Shown here: positions 51,108 through 56,891 of the stretch, one piece after another
Layout of the letters: the number at the start of each line of letters is the position of its first letter
Position numbering within the stretch: the first letter of the stretch is position 1
Assembly (NCBI GenBank): GCA_038897215.1
Contig: JAWAWX010000001.1
Coordinates: 864,001 to 928,000, forward strand
Direction of reading: 5' to 3'
DNA: 64,000 nucleotides
Source: Acidilobaceae archaeon
Lineage (GTDB): Archaea; Thermoproteota; Thermoprotei_A; Sulfolobales; Acidilobaceae
Notes under the pieces: model-generated
Databases searched by the model: none
Seen by the model: only the letters and a program-made list of their open reading frames with translations
Told to the model about the DNA's origin: nothing
Translations under genes and position numbers: made by a program

Positions 51108-51569
51108 CTACGCGTACTTAGCTAGTTCAGGCTTTTCTCTAACCAGCTCTTCCGCAACCTCTCTCGCAACGCTGTCTAAGAGGCTTCTACCGCTCGGGCT
51201 GAGTGTTCTGCCCTTGCCCGGCACCTTGACTACTAGCCTTGCTCTCTCGAGTTGCTGGAGTATCTTTCTCACAGCTGAGCCCCCGCTAGGCTTGAAGTGA
51301 GGCGGGGCTGAGCCTCTTCTCTGCCTCCCACCGTATACTATCCTGAACGCGCCTACTCCCACGGGCTCTCCCGATTTGTAGAGCTTTCTCAGAATAGAGG
51401 CAGCCCTGTAGTACCACCAATCGGGGTCCTGCGGTGGTCTGTCTTTGTGCGGCCCTGTTTTAGCGAAGTACGCCCAGCTAGGCGGCTTTACTTGAGGATA
51501 CTTCTCCTTCAATACTTGAGCTAGTCTTCTGATCAGCCGGTCTGCTGGAACCCACAGAGCTGAAACCAT
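51108..51569 (-). CDS. rps19e: Ribosomal protein eS19
   Basis: PSWAYFAKTG, WWYYRAASILRK, YGG. Confidence 0.96.
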   Translation of the reverse strand: MVSALWVPADRLIRRLAQVLKEKYPQVKPPSWAYFAKTGPHKDRPPQDPDWWYYRAASILRKLYKSGEPVGVGAFRIVYGGRQRRGSAPPHFKPSGGSAVRKILQQLERARLVVKVPGKGRTLSPSGRSLLDSVAREVAEELVREKPELAKYA

Positions 51570-51572
51570 GCC

Positions 51573-51857
51573 TTATCTCCTCTCTGCACTCATAGACCTA
51601 GGCTTATATAGTATGAACGTTCTCCCTCTCACGTCGAGCAGGCGAGCTCCCACAGCTTCACTCACCATCTTGGCTAGCTCTTGTCTAGTAAGTCCTGTAG
51701 AGACTAGTGCTGACTTCAGGATCCGCACTTTAACTACTCCCTTCTTATCGAGTCTACTCTTGATCTCGCTGATGACCCCCTCTGTTAGACCCTGCTTGCC
51801 TATCTGGACGTCGCTAGGGCCGTGTACGCTCTCCGAGACTCTCTTCTTAAAGCTCAC
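51573..51857 (-). CDS. YhbY/CRM-domain RNA-binding protein
   Basis: QIGKQGLT, VKVR, RGRTFILY. Confidence 0.9.
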   Translation of the reverse strand: MSFKKRVSESVHGPSDVQIGKQGLTEGVISEIKSRLDKKGVVKVRILKSALVSTGLTRQELAKMVSEAVGARLLDVRGRTFILYKPRSMSAERR

Positions 51858-52204: not shown

Positions 52205-53999
52205 TTCTCCTCAGCTGCCTCCTGTACATCTCAACTATCTCATCCTCTGTGGTAGCGTCTTCTGGACTCTTATCGGGCCTCCATCTGATGAATCTAGGGA
52301 ATCTAATCGAGATCCCCACGTCAGCCTTCACTACATCCAAACCGCAGGTGTGCATTGGCGAGAGAGTCAGCTCTGCTCCAAGTATCTCCGCTACGAATCT
52401 AGGCTCAATCCAGACGTCTGGCTTCAGCTTGCTCACTACTCTAGCGTGCTTGTGGGGGATCACGTAGGGTTTCAGCATCTCGTTCATCTTATCTAGCTCC
52501 TCGTCTGTAAACCCTGTAGCTACCTTGCAGACAGTCTTGAAGACATCTGCTCTCGGGTCGTATGCAGCCATGAGGAGACTGCTGAGCTTCCCTCCGCGCT
52601 TCCCCTTACCATAGAATGCTCCGACAACAACCAGGTCTACGGTGTCTATCATCTCGCTCTTGTAGTCTCTCTTGAATTTAACCCAGAGCCATCCTCTGAC
52701 TCCAGCTGTGTAGACGCTGTTATCGTGTATAGCTTTAATCATCAGCCCCTCTGCTCCCTCGGATATCGCTTCGTAGAAGAAGCTCATTATGCTCGAGGCG
52801 CTATCTGTCACCACGTTTCTGGCTATAGCCCAGTTTTCATCCTCTACTATGATGCTCTCCAGGTACTGTCTCCTCTCTAGGAGAGGTTTGACTGTCAAGT
52901 CTACTCCGTCGACGTAGAGAGCGTCGAAGAGGAACACCTTGACTGGAACTTCTTTCATCACCTTGTCTATCTCGTGCTTCCTCTTCCTCTGCATGAGCTC
53001 CTGGAATGGCTTCAAGTCGCCTGTCTCGGGGTCGTACGCGACTATCTCTCCCTCTATTATGGCTTCTCTAGCTCTGATTCCTCTCCTAGCGTACTCCACG
53101 ACGTCGGGGAACATCCTGGTTATGTTCTCCAGCCTCCTCGAGAATATTCTCACCTCCTCCCCCATCTTGTGTATCTGAGCTCTCTCTCCGTCGTACTTGA
53201 ACTCTACGAGAGCTCTGCCGCCGACTTTCTCCATGACCTCCTCGATGTCTTTGCCTCGCTCTGCGAGCATGGGTCTTATGGGCACGCCAGGCTGGGGCGT
53301 GATGTGCTGAAGAGCACTTACTCCCTCTCGCGCCACGATTTTAGCTATTGCTCCCAAGTCTGCTCTCAGATTGTACGCTCTCTCCACGATAGGCCTGGCT
53401 GATGAGCCTCCACCGAATGCTACAGCTAGAGCGTCTAGTATCGTGGCGTCTCCAACCCCTAGCCTCAGCCTCCCCTCCACGAATCTGACTATGTACTTCG
53501 CCTCGAGAGGCTCGGCGTCAGCAAGAAGCCCGGCGAGCAAGCGGATCTTGACGTCCTTGCTCCCCTCACCCGTAGCCTCTGCTACCCTACGTAGAGTATC
53601 GAAGACTCTCGTCACAGTGAGTTTTCTCTGCTGCCCTCCGACGAAGAGCTCTAGCCCCGAGGGCTTCTGCCTAGACTGCCTAGAGAGCCTCTCAGCCAGG
53701 GACCCCATATCGCCCAGCGATTTGAAGAGCTTCTCTACAGTGTCGACAGACACTCTGTAAGCTTGAGCTAGAGAAGCTAGTAGCATCTTCTCTCCTACGC
53801 CGAGCTCAGGAATATCCATCCAATCGGGGCCCAGCTTGCCCTGGATTAGGTAGACGACCTTGTCTATCACCTCTGGAGGAGAAGCCTTGAAGAGCTTCAC
53901 TAGAATCAGCGCTAGCTGAGTCCTAGCGCTAACTCTCTCCAGACTCTGGAAAACCTCAGCGACCCTAGAGAACTCCATGTCTGCAACCGGCCCGCTCAC
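52167..53999 (-). CDS. lig: ATP-dependent DNA ligase
   Basis: PMLA, EFKYDGER, EGLMIK, WVKFK, SIRFPRF. Confidence 0.97.
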   Translation of the reverse strand: MSGPVADMEFSRVAEVFQSLERVSARTQLALILVKLFKASPPEVIDKVVYLIQGKLGPDWMDIPELGVGEKMLLASLAQAYRVSVDTVEKLFKSLGDMGSLAERLSRQSRQKPSGLELFVGGQQRKLTVTRVFDTLRRVAEATGEGSKDVKIRLLAGLLADAEPLEAKYIVRFVEGRLRLGVGDATILDALAVAFGGGSSARPIVERAYNLRADLGAIAKIVAREGVSALQHITPQPGVPIRPMLAERGKDIEEVMEKVGGRALVEFKYDGERAQIHKMGEEVRIFSRRLENITRMFPDVVEYARRGIRAREAIIEGEIVAYDPETGDLKPFQELMQRKRKHEIDKVMKEVPVKVFLFDALYVDGVDLTVKPLLERRQYLESIIVEDENWAIARNVVTDSASSIMSFFYEAISEGAEGLMIKAIHDNSVYTAGVRGWLWVKFKRDYKSEMIDTVDLVVVGAFYGKGKRGGKLSSLLMAAYDPRADVFKTVCKVATGFTDEELDKMNEMLKPYVIPHKHARVVSKLKPDVWIEPRFVAEILGAELTLSPMHTCGLDVVKADVGISIRFPRFIRWRPDKSPEDATTEDEIVEMYRRQLRRIEEAPLESQEAA

Positions 54000-54047
54000 A
54001 GAGCCCCCTCCTAGAGAAAATCTAGCACACCAAACCTAAAGGAGAGA

Positions 54048-54109
54048 GGAGCTCGGCGCTTGCACTCCTCGGTCACAGGGGTCCCAGCGCGCGGACTCCT
54101 CACAGCCCC
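54048..54109 (-). ncRNA. Probable box C/D sRNA just downstream of tRNA-Leu
   Basis: Stem GGGGC/GCTCC; C GTGAGGA and D CCGA at the usual spacing; internal D'/C' boxes degenerate. Confidence 0.45.
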
Positions 54110-54139
54110 CCAGTTACCCAGCCTGACCGCGCAATAGAG

Positions 54140-54227
54140 TGGTGCGGGGGGTGGGATTTGAACCCACGCAGGCCTACGCCATCGGGTCCTGAGCCCGACC
54201 CCTTTGACCAGGCTCGGGCACCCCCGC
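54140..54227 (-). tRNA. tRNA-Leu(CAG), intronless, CCA encoded
   Basis: GCGGGGG acceptor stem, anticodon arm TCGGG-CTCAGGA-CCCGA, long variable arm, GGTTCAAATCC, ACCA end. Confidence 0.97.
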
Positions 54228-54287
54228 ACTCTACCCTCTAGCTGGTGACCTCTGACTCAACCTTGTGTCTGATATCGAGCCCAAGAG

Positions 54288-54301
54288 CCTTATAAGCTTT
54301 C
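54288..54301 (-). promoter_or_regulatory. BRE/TATA promoter of tRNA-Leu
   Basis: GAAAGCTTATAAGG on the minus strand. Confidence 0.65.
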
Positions 54302-54538
54302 AAGCATTAGCAGACTAAACGAGAGCACGCTAAGCAGATGCTCGTTCTCAAGCCTAGATAGCATCCACTAAGAGAGTAGACCGTAACCACTAGCACGATA
54401 ACGCGAGCTCTCCGAAGATTCGAGCCTCCACTAACCCTCCGCAGCTCTAGCCCTATAGTCATCTAAAGCTCCTGAATAGCATCCACTCACAGCACTACGC
54501 TAGAACGTGCCCCTAAAGCAGAGAGAACACAGAAGAGT

Positions 54539-54863
54539 AGCGGAGGCGAGCACCCCCAAAGGTTCGAACAACCAGACCCCCCACCCCCGGGCCCGGTGGG
54601 CTTGGGGGTGTGTTAGAGAAGATAGCTAGAGGAAAGCCTCTATATAGCAGAAGGCCCCACAACCTGCAGGGCTCGGAGGTACTCGAGAACCCAAGGCTCC
54701 AGCATGAGCCGGAGCCCCGGATTCCCGGATACCTCCGGCCTCCTCACGGCTGTGGAGCCTTCTGCTATATAGAGGCTTTCCTCTAGCTATCTTCTCTAAC
54801 ACACCCCCAAGCCCGAGCGGGGGGTCGTGGTCCCCGCGGGCTTTGGGGGTGCTCGCCTCCGCT
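54539..54863. repeat. Nested quasi-palindrome (foldback/MITE/REPIN-like element)
   Basis: Perfect 23-bp IR 54539-54561/54841-54863; perfect 58-bp IR 54598-54655/54757-54814; imperfect pairing continues to a 10-nt central loop at 54701-54710. Confidence 0.92.
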
Positions 54864-54949
54864 TCTTTTTTGCTTTCTGGGTTAAAGAGGGAATAGGCTG
54901 GTGTTACTGTTTGCTGGTATTTAGCGGCGCTAGTATATAGGGTTTTGTT

Positions 54950-55351
54950 TTAGTATACGTAAGCTATTAGGATGCCGCCTATTCTTCTAGCTATTGCTTC
55001 TTTGTGTGACATCACACCGCGGTCTGTGGAGAGTATGAGTATCCCTATGTCTCTGCTTGCTAGGTACTTCTTCAGGTGGTCTGGCATTCTGAGGAGCTCT
55101 CGGTAGGTCGCAGAGAATCTGGGCTTCACTACTCCGCAGTCGTTCACTCTGCCTAGGAGGTGGACTCTGAACTTGCCGAATCTACCGTCGTCTATGTACT
55201 CGAACTCGCCTATGTATCCTTCTCTCTGCATTACTCTAAGCACGTTGGCTATGAGCTTCGAGGCCGGCATTATTATTGCTTCTCTCTTTCCCCTCATCTC
55301 CGCGTTCTTTATCGTGGCCATCGCGTTAGCTAGAGTGTCTAGCATCACCAC
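54950..55351 (-). CDS. rps8: Ribosomal protein uS8
   Basis: [34 protein letters not shown]. Confidence 0.97.
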
Positions 55352-55363
55352 GGCTCTCTCACC

Positions 55364-55528
55364 CTAATCGTACTTCTGGAAGCCAAGAGTGTAGGCTATC
55401 TCTCTGAAGCACTGTCTGCACACGAAGAGACCGTATTTCTGTATCACTGCGTCTCTCGACCCGCATCTCTGGCATTTCTGAGCTCCTCTCCCCATGGTTT
55501 TGGGTGTTGGAGGCTTGAATTTACCCAT
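55364..55528 (-). CDS. rps14: Ribosomal protein uS14 (54 aa, Zn-binding, not in ORF track)
   Basis: MGKFKPP...CQRCG...KYGLFVCRQCFRE. Confidence 0.96.
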   Translation of the reverse strand: MGKFKPPTPKTMGRGAQKCQRCGSRDAVIQKYGLFVCRQCFREIAYTLGFQKYD

Positions 55529-55539
55529 CTCTCACACCC

Positions 55540-56127
55540 TTACACGAAGGTTACTCCGAAGAGTTGGTTTAAAAGCACCATGGTCTCCTCTCTCGTGACC
55601 ACCTTGTGTCTCCTGGGAGCTCTGGACCTAGCTCTTCTCCTCCTAGCTACCCTCATGCCCGGTCTCTCTATCGTTATGCAGACGTCGAAGCCCCATATGC
55701 CTATCTCCGGGTCGTACTTGACTCCTGGCACTTGGATGTGCTCTTTCACACCGAAGGATATGTTTCCATGCTCGTCTATGCTGGAAGCCTTGAGCCTATA
55801 GCCTACAGCCTCCAGGACTCGCTTCAGCACCTCGAGCGCTTTCTCTCCTCTCAGCGTCACGGTAGCGCCTATGTTCTCTCCTCTCTTTATCCCAAACGCT
55901 TTGATAGTCTTCTTCGCTCTCCTAGGCACAGGCTTTGCTCCAGTAATGGACTCCAATACTTTGAGTGCTTTGAGTAGCCTCTCTCCGCTCTGCCCAACGC
56001 CTATGTTTAGAGTCACCTTAGCTATCCTCGGCTTCCTCATAGGCTGCCTGCTCCAGCTCTCTAGGATCCTGTTGACCTCCTCCTCTGTTAGAGGCAATCC
56101 TTTTTGAAGCATCTGCCCTGAGCTCAC
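55540..56127 (-). CDS. rpl5: Ribosomal protein uL5
   Basis: [26 protein letters not shown]. Confidence 0.97.
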
Positions 56128-56891
56128 CTCCAGACGCCCTCCGGTAGGCTTATGAGAGGCTTATCGGAGCCTATCACCATTATGTACTCCAGGATCGTCT
56201 GGAAAGACTGGCCTCTAGCGTCCTCTAGCGTGACTATACTCCTAGCCTTCTTCCAGGCGCTCCACTGTATGCTCTTGACTACTCCGACTCTTCCAACTAG
56301 TCTACCTCCTATGACGATAGCTATAGCTCCCTCTCTGAGAGGAACGTAGCTCTTGATTTCCTGTTCTGGAATAGTTATGAGTAAGCTCGCTCTAGTCTCG
56401 TAGAGAGCTCCCTCTGCTGGTCTCCTCGGATCGCTTACTCTCACTAGTATGTTCCTACCGTCGTGGAGATGGAGCTGAATATGCCCTCCTCTAACGGTAG
56501 ACTTGTCCTCTATCCTGACAATCTTCAGTCTAGCCTCCTCTCTGCTTATGGGGTGAAGCGTTAGGAAGGTTGTGGGAGCGGGGAGAACCCTGTAGGCTTC
56601 TCCAGTCTTAGGTATCTCTAGTACATCCATAGGGCCTATAGGGAACTTGTAGTCTTTCCGCACCACGCCATCGACCTTGAAGTGCCCCTCTGCTATTAGC
56701 TTCCTAGCCTCTCTCGAAGTCTTAGCGTAGCCGAGGAGGTCTCTGACCACGATTAGTAGAGGCAGGCTTCTCTCAATGGGGTGAGGTCCTGGAGAGGGCT
56801 TGACTGTCCACTTGAACTCCTTCCTCTTGATAGGCCACCATGCTGGAGCAGCTAGAGCTTTGAGGTGGCGGCTACCACCGATTCTAGCCAT
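56124..56891 (-). CDS. rps4e: Ribosomal protein eS4
   Basis: [20 protein letters not shown]. Confidence 0.97.

Follow-up and report, generated by a model that had tools for sequence, protein, structure and literature searches.

A conserved 325-base palindrome of Acidilobaceae as a candidate gene for a rod-shaped structured RNA

Results

The palindrome and its surroundings

The window, the 64,000-nucleotide stretch of DNA analysed here, comes from a hot-spring archaeon of the Acidilobaceae. On its minus strand lie, in order, the genes for S4e, L5, S14 and uS8, then a 325-base palindrome at 54539-54863 that forms an imperfect rod, and then tRNA-Leu(CAG), an ATP-dependent DNA ligase and Rpp21. 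The ribosomal row S4e-L5-S14-uS8 (54950-56891) ends at uS8, and L6, the next gene in most relatives, is absent there; the element occupies this uS8-L6 break in genera g1 and g7. Two reading frames of 58 aa on the element, one per strand, are mirror images of one another and arise as a consequence of the palindrome. Taking the minus strand of the window as sense, the neighbours and parts of the element are as follows.

54950..55351, minus strand: uS8 gene, upstream neighbour (Pfam Ribosomal_S8, E 7.7e-27)
54880..54889, minus strand: TATA-like box CTCTTTAACC, read from the sequence
54841..54862, minus strand: H1, 5' strand of the closing stem (GCGGAGGCGAGCACCCCCAAAG), pairing perfectly with 54540-54561
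54832..54840, minus strand: P1 mini-palindrome (CCCGCGGGG), 5' strand, at the four-way junction
54819..54831, minus strand: H2, 5' strand (ACCACGACCCCCC), pairing with 54571-54582 with one bulged C
54757..54814, minus strand: 5' arm of the spacer helix (one arm of the 58-bp repeat)
54656..54756, minus strand: apical domain, folded as an imperfect hairpin around a 10-nt central loop, its stems formed by GGAGGTA/TACCTCC and GGCTCC/GGAGCC
54598..54655, minus strand: 3' arm of the spacer helix (the other arm of the 58-bp repeat), located by script
54584..54600, minus strand: P2 invariant motif CCCACCGGGCCCGGGGG, a 3-bp side hairpin with a GGCC loop at the three-way junction
54571..54583, minus strand: H2, 3' strand
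54562..54569, minus strand: P3 mini-palindrome (GTTCGAAC), 3' strand, at the four-way junction
54540..54561, minus strand: H1, 3' strand of the closing stem, located by script and repeat search
54510..54519, plus strand: second TATA-like box CCCCTAAAGC, read from the sequence, facing the element at a matching distance from the opposite side
54140..54227, minus strand: tRNA-Leu(CAG), about 310 nt downstream of the element

The initial annotation had described perfect inverted repeats of 58 and 23 bp, and a script run on the window located both, at 54598-54655 / 54757-54814 and 54539-54561 / 54841-54863. A motif that it listed four times in alternating orientation, CACCCCCAA, lies on the plus strand at 54551 and 54802 and as its complement at 54602 and 54843, with no further copies in the 64-kb window. 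The 10-nt central loop is present as described, with its position shifted by one base: the unpaired nucleotides are 54700-54709, not 54701-54710. A repeat search resolves the arms into 67 nt at 97% and 38 nt at 87%, and follows the palindrome weakly into both flanks. Both strands fold into one long rod, at -272.6 kcal/mol for the plus strand (z -18) and -303.9 kcal/mol for the minus strand (z -25), values that none of 100 shuffles equalled in either case.

Perfect inverted repeats of at least 20 bp with arms no more than 600 nt apart are rare in the 1.16-Mb genome. There are only four, two of them contributed by the element and one by the SRP RNA gene. The last is the long helix of the SRP RNA, a perfect 40-bp repeat without G-U pairs (G000:C1:51589-51628 / 51786-51825) and the second longest perfect inverted repeat in the genome. 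The genome's only other long perfect palindrome, the 48-nt GGAACCGTTTCCTGCTCTAGGTCGACCTAGAGCAGGAAACGGTTCC at G000:C1:557655-557702, is apparently intergenic.

An assembly artefact, which the initial annotation had named as a way to refute the element, is not supported. Twelve other genomes or metagenome contigs, assembled independently, share the architecture with unique sequence flanking it on both sides; therefore, the element is not a product of assembly. Several other short-read assemblies break or fold back within it. Assembly ends inside the element were seen at L004/L026 (the end of G006 contig C63), L003 and L006 (both G001), L033, L034, L036, L028 and L177. The end of the G006 contig is a fold-back copy of the 3' end of the adjacent gene, a chimeric artefact arising from the palindrome.

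A single-copy family with conserved ends

The element is one locus in its own genome, a single contig. Related elements occur once per genome in six of the 15 genera of Acidilobaceae, and all of them derive from uncultured genomes. The 15-mer of P2, CCACCGGGCCCGGGG, is present in 16 of the 325 genomes of the order, once in each, and a reversed control gave 2 hits. Ten of these 16 genomes, besides the window's own, belong to the same family. Eleven genomes from six genera have an identical 15-mer core, always single and always on the promoter-distal arm. A covariance model built from the 3' module recovered three additional g7 genomes, in which P2 appears as the variants TCACCGGGCCCGG and CTACCGGGCCCGG, and the scan of one metagenome added another species and several strain variants. 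Weak matches of the covariance model in g14, g15, g2, g9, g11 and g3 were rejected, as they lie outside any rod context. Complete genomes from five other Acidilobaceae genera did not yield the family, so that it is no universal housekeeping RNA; as far as searched, it is restricted to part of the Acidilobaceae. Literature searches turned up no account of an element of this kind.

In the sister species G001, the palindrome is found at the orthologous place, between uS8 and tRNA-Leu. Both contigs of G001 terminate within the palindrome. The outer modules are conserved between the two species, and the perfect inner helix of G001, ~80 bp long, is of unrelated sequence.

The polarity is the same in all six genera: P1 sits on the arm next to the promoter-like box, P2 and P3 on the arm away from it. 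A single motif is conserved between genera, and it is confined to one arm; it forms the side hairpin written CC-ACCGGGCCCGG-GGG among the features shared by all members. The other parts vary in sequence and keep their form. The closing stem H1 of other members measures 10-22 bp and is always paired, with sequences unrelated between genera. P1 reads CCCGCGGG or, at the equivalent position in other members, CCGCGCGG, CCGCTAGCGG or CCACTAGTGG, and in g6 it is a true hairpin of 5-6 bp with an AUAA or ACAA loop. At the position of P3, other members have TTCCGGAA, TTCTAGAA, TTCCAGGAA or GCTCCGGAGC, so that palindromy is kept while the sequence changes. As hairpins, the P1 and P3 mini-palindromes would be very weak at growth temperature. 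H2 is 12-24 bp across the family and ~100 bp in g6. In addition, g6 members have an extra 5' hairpin with covarying stems and a GCAA (GNRA) tetraloop cap; this hairpin is GNRA-capped only when read on the proposed sense strand.

Between these ends and the apical domain, every lineage has its own, unrelated sequence for the long spacer helix. In the window, G001, G062/G065 and G007, the helix is AT-rich and pairs perfectly; in g6, g8 and g10, it is GC-rich with imperfect pairing. In g7 it ranges from 39 to ~90 bp, with sequence unrelated to that of the window. The apical domain is conserved inside a genus, with compensatory changes (helices 7-9 of the g7 analysis).

Covariation and evolution of the spacer helix

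Seven g7 sequences were used to examine pairing across 108 base pairs. These are 88.8% paired, a value that falls to at most 51% when the partners are slid by 1-3 columns. Changes on both sides occur in 55 of the 108 pairs, against 29.2 ± 3.6 in shuffles (none of 500 reached this number). Compensatory changes in g7 therefore support a conserved secondary structure, as would be looked for in a stand-alone structured non-coding RNA.

Two g7 species have near-identical basal modules and similar apical domains, and their spacer helices differ at many positions while still being almost perfectly paired. This comparison indicates that the spacer sequence is free and that its pairing is maintained. 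Strain variants show changes on single arms; L169 and L258, for example, differ on one arm only. An unconstrained spacer helix would drift at the neutral rate, and single-arm changes would eventually be lost or copied onto the opposite arm. Quasi-palindromes are known to mutate by templated correction. Such correction, acting together with selection for pairing, would account for the perfect arms, their fast turnover and the lack of G-U intermediates. We infer that the perfection of the 58-bp repeat is best explained by neutral drift under pairing selection, aided by templated correction of DNA from arm to arm.

Counting mismatches did not assign a strand. Over 13 members, internal G-U pairs and A-C mismatches stand at 42:21 when read as sense and at 39:19 when read as antisense. 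There is no overall bias, and individual genomes lean to different sides, the window 9:1 towards sense and G020 12:2 towards antisense. The pattern looks mutational rather than the result of RNA selection on one strand, and strand assignment by G-U counting was set aside because the bias flips between genomes.

Promoter-like boxes and neighbouring genes

In the 11 members with assembled upstream sequence, a TATA-like box lies ~16-29 nt upstream of the structured part, the distance in g6 being measured to the extra 5' hairpin. In the window, the centre of the box precedes the start of the closing stem by ~24-26 nt. The box is strongly conserved within g7 (CCCTAACCCCTTAWAAA). The window box (CTCTTTAACCC) is nearly identical to that of the SRP RNA gene, CACTTAACCC, and is compatible with the CTTTAAAG-type boxes found upstream of most tRNA genes. 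AT-rich TATA-like boxes are also present on the far side in several members, the window included. A box on the P1 side accompanies every member with upstream sequence, and a far-side box accompanies several. From its sequence, the second box of the window, CCCCTAAAGC, may allow the opposite strand to be transcribed. In the window, the proposed sense strand is not followed by a clear oligo-T terminator, and a T6 run follows the opposite strand. A further sequence resembling a BRE/TATA element, GAGGAAAGCCTCTATATAG, is held within the 5' arm of the spacer helix.

The 60-nt region upstream of tRNA-Leu(CAG) has no TATA-like box, whereas most of the 40 tRNA genes have one, and this tRNA may be co-transcribed with the element. 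The same order of element, spacer and tRNA-Leu is found in the sister species. There, a box GAGGAAAGCTCTATATAG lies ~70 nt upstream of tRNA-Leu and is almost identical to the inner-helix GAGGAAAGCCTCTATATAG of the window. The 310-nt spacer between the element and tRNA-Leu in the window contains three direct copies of AGCATCCACTAA-like boxes, at 54360, 54423 and 54478 (spacings of 63 and 55 nt; window 54353-54492).

Outside the sister species, the neighbourhood changes. In g7 the element follows uS8 as in the window, and the gene downstream is presumably a permease, with no tRNA. In g6 the gene before the element is one that we take, from its translation, to be the fumarate hydratase beta subunit, and in g8, g10 and g13 the neighbours are different again.

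Composition of the flanks

On both sides of the element, the strand leading away from it is G/T-rich for ~0.5-1 kb, the uS8 coding sequence included. This zone spans 53500-55250 of the window (917500-919250 of the genome). The (G+T-A-C) skew of the plus strand is -0.21 to the left and +0.23 to the right of the element, where the 1% and 99% quantiles of the genome are -0.18 and +0.18. This switch from A/C-rich to G/T-rich sequence is present in all nine members that have flanks; the polarity was also noted at L027, L029, L030, L035, L036 and L053-L055. With a switch score of +0.47 (score sd 0.098), the element ranks 7th genome-wide. The top ranks are held by CRISPR arrays, and the SRP RNA gene is 12th (+0.39). 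The tRNA genes (n = 40) have a mean switch of +0.13, with -0.083 upstream and +0.048 downstream. Cumulative skew at the element shows only a local switch, no longer than 1 kb.

Since the signature is also seen at tRNA genes, the SRP RNA gene and CRISPR arrays, it marks loci of non-coding RNA, and as such it fits a transcribed element. It probably reflects a local, transcription-linked mutational process at these loci. The pattern is invariant under reverse complement and so gives no strand. A switch point located at either end of the rod could account for the mismatch bias of individual genomes inside the rod. A degenerate outer continuation of the palindrome arms in the flanks was considered and rejected, as neither rod arms and flanks nor the left flank and the reverse-complemented right flank showed similarity (z values of at most 2.8).

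Searches against known families

Transfer RNA is the only above-threshold match of Rfam 15 in the window. The element and six other members gave only sub-threshold, spurious matches to microRNA hairpins, so that no Rfam 15 family reaches its gathering threshold. The archaeal SRP RNA model RF01857 has no match in 54100-55000 up to E = 10, and finds the true SRP RNA at genome position 51512-51834 with 162.9 bits. A divergent SRP RNA or RNase P RNA was therefore rejected as the identity of the element, since both are located elsewhere with strong scores.

The inner-helix arm contains a 19-nt perfect match (54781-54799) to G000:C1:330509-330527 (E 0.008), in a frame that we take to be hisD (histidinol dehydrogenase). 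An antisense guide to an own gene was rejected, because for the inner helix of G007, G001 or G062 no comparable match exists in the respective genome; the hisD match is probably due to chance. A memory or decoy derived from a virus was likewise rejected, as two 21-22-mers of the arm have no exact match in IMG/VR. The whole element has no blastn match in phage or plasmid collections, and the three viral matches of the P2 17-mer all lie in coding sequence, without a rod.

Discussion

A candidate gene for a rod-shaped RNA

Our data lean, by somewhat more than an even chance, towards a gene, present once and transcribed from its own promoter, whose product is a rod-shaped structured RNA of ~320 nt. 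That this is a stand-alone non-coding RNA of SRP-RNA-like build, not previously described, we regard as slightly more probable than not, to about the same degree. A structured RNA outside known families was one of the possibilities left by the initial annotation, and it is the one favoured by the promoter-like box, the asymmetric junctions, the covariation and the absence of any Rfam match. The perfect repeat is no argument against an RNA gene, because the SRP RNA gene of the same genome has a perfect 40-bp helix. Structure, conservation, covariation, copy number, box and polarity are read directly from the genomes; from these we infer transcription, its strand, a partner and a function.

According to this model, transcription of the minus strand would start ~24 nt beyond the CTTTAACC box. 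The transcript would form H1 (22 bp) by pairing of its 5' and 3' ends, next to a four-way junction that would bear the mini-hairpins P1 and P3. Beyond H2, a three-way junction would present the invariant hairpin P2 (ACCGGGCCCGG), followed by the spacer helix, whose sequence would drift while its pairing is retained, and a genus-specific apical domain of ~100 nt would cap the rod. As the sole part that is strictly conserved in sequence, P2 is probably the docking site of a specific partner, which would most likely be a protein. By analogy to SRP RNA, the molecule might serve as the scaffold of a ribonucleoprotein, its conserved ends held apart by a stiff helix. A bolder version, which we put forward only tentatively, would make it an abundant ribonucleoprotein RNA of the Acidilobaceae, a second '7S-like' rod with P2 docking a dedicated protein and a self-correcting spacer, possibly read from both strands.

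Alternative explanations

Among the alternatives, a structural site at the DNA level has a modest chance of being correct. Here, a hairpin or cruciform would act in loading, priming, pausing or recombination, with P2 and the mini-palindromes used for protein binding or extrusion, and transcription would be incidental. The strand symmetry of mismatch types overall, the perfect arms with their concerted evolution, and mini-palindromes that are perfect DNA palindromes all agree with such a site, as do the TATA-like boxes on each side and the origin-type keto-skew polarity of both flanks, which resembles that of CRISPR arrays. However, the polarity of P1, P2 and P3 is fixed relative to one conserved box in six genera, and a DNA-only, homogenised palindrome should lose such asymmetries. 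The GNRA-capped 5' hairpin of g6 is meaningful only as RNA, and the flank skew, being shared with tRNA and SRP RNA genes, is a mark of transcribed RNA genes as well as of DNA structures. In addition, hyperthermophiles with reverse gyrase disfavour the extrusion of cruciforms. As for a replication origin, which in archaea would have inverted origin-recognition boxes around an AT-rich unwinding element beside orc1/cdc6 or whiP, the five nearest annotated protein neighbours on the same strand are ribosomal proteins to one side and, to the other, the DNA ligase and Rpp21; none of them is an initiator of replication. The element could alternatively act in cis, as a huge terminator, stabiliser or insulator hairpin of the uS8 operon or as a 5' leader and processing platform of tRNA-Leu. 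Its place directly after uS8 on the same strand in g1 and g7, and a tRNA-Leu 310 nt downstream without a TATA box of its own, speak for this role, but it is improbable in view of the different neighbours in g6, g8, g10 and g13, the non-tRNA gene downstream in g7 and the conserved promoter-like box of the element itself. An invariant motif of 15-17 nt and a conserved apical domain also exceed the needs of a terminator.

A neutral relic, in which an old inverted duplication or rearrangement at the break in the ribosomal operon left a palindrome that stays paired only through templated correction, would account for the perfect arms and for a location where the usual uS8-L6 order is broken. We consider it quite unlikely, because the element is conserved over six genera despite differing neighbours, its 15-mer is invariant, its junctions are conserved, its apical hairpins covary and its flanks are not degenerate arms. 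Least probable, and by now hardly tenable, is the mobile, foldback or REPIN-like element that the initial annotation proposed, a non-autonomous unit (MITE, REPIN or foldback) driven by an HUH/Y1 or TnpB-type enzyme. What such a reading has in its favour is the nesting of hairpins in opposite orientations. The copy-number search suggested at the outset returned a single locus in this genome and one P2 15-mer per genome in relatives; the site is occupied and orthologous in the sister species, and no direct repeat flanks the ends of the element, in agreement with the earlier statement that no target-site duplication is visible. There is no match to Y1_Tnp (PF01797) in the genome, which is 89.7% complete, and the TnpB zinc-ribbon domain (PF07282) gives only two sub-threshold matches, in long unrelated frames far away. 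Nothing similar to the element was found in phage, plasmid or viral collections.

If transcribed, the rod-shaped RNA that we favour would give hyperthermophilic Crenarchaeota (Thermoproteota) a further, new family of large structured RNAs. To our knowledge, few RNAs beyond rRNA, tRNA, SRP RNA, RNase P RNA and guide RNAs are known in this group. Its design is unusual in that conserved ends are set on a fast-evolving, perfectly paired helix of 40-100 bp. The element also lends itself naturally to asking how a long palindrome can persist in a chromosome at very high temperature without losing its perfection, and links to the local mutational skew at tRNA genes, the SRP RNA gene and CRISPR arrays. 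In practical terms, it breaks or folds back short-read assemblies of these genomes. In general, a striking palindrome need not be a mobile element.

Comparison with known systems

With REPINs or BIMEs and the ends of IS200/IS605 elements, the palindrome shares inverted hairpin units that can fold as a rod or as separate hairpins. Those elements exist as tens to hundreds of dispersed copies together with a RAYT or TnpA(Y1) gene, whereas the element described here is single-copy, ~10x longer, orthologous and found in a genome without a Y1 transposase. Thus neither the many dispersed copies nor the RAYT/TnpA(Y1) gene of a REPIN or BIME was observed. A MITE or foldback element would combine terminal inverted repeats with a target-site duplication, empty sites and several copies; the element is present once, has no direct repeat at its ends and fills the orthologous site in the sister species. 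An IS200/IS605 end or a TnpB omega-RNA would be accompanied by tnpB or tnpA, adjacent or elsewhere in the genome; neither gene was found above cut-off, and the neighbours are uS8, tRNA-Leu and a DNA ligase.

The T-shaped terminal repeats of AAV, the attC sites of integrons and the single-strand origins of plasmids are imperfect palindromes in which small internal palindromes or extrahelical bases give polarity to the folded strand. These DNA hairpins are parts of replicons that are mobile or extrachromosomal and have a Rep or integrase dedicated to them. In contrast, no gene of that kind lies near the element, which is chromosomal, conserved, single-copy and accompanied by a promoter-like box.

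Four complete genomes of Pyrodictiaceae (L037-L040) also have the exact motif CCCACCGGGCCCGGGG (15-17 nt), located ~90 nt before the 5' end of their 16S rRNA. There, the motif pairs with the downstream leader in a chain of separate hairpins and does not form the side hairpin of a rod, and the 16S leader of the element's own genome is without CCCACCGGGCCCGGGG. For these reasons descent from an rRNA processing stem or leader was rejected, and the match is taken as chance or convergence.

OLE, GOLLD, ROOL, HEARO and raiA are large structured bacterial RNAs, restricted to certain lineages, for which covariation preceded function, and some of them are reported to self-associate. The element has no sequence or model similarity to them; it is archaeal, almost fully double-stranded and built on a fast-evolving perfect helix. 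Like them, it could possibly self-associate, through its self-complementary loops.

The closest parallel is the SRP RNA of the same genome. The element lacks features of an Alu or S domain (helix 6/8), as judged by eye and by the absence of a match to the SRP RNA covariance model, and its P1, P2 and P3 junctions have no SRP counterpart. The two nevertheless share a single copy, nearly the same TATA-like box, CTT(T)AACCC in this genome, as part of a promoter of their own that is putative for the element, and the same compositional switch in the flanks. Both are ~320 nt long with paired ends, and both carry two conserved ends on one long helix.
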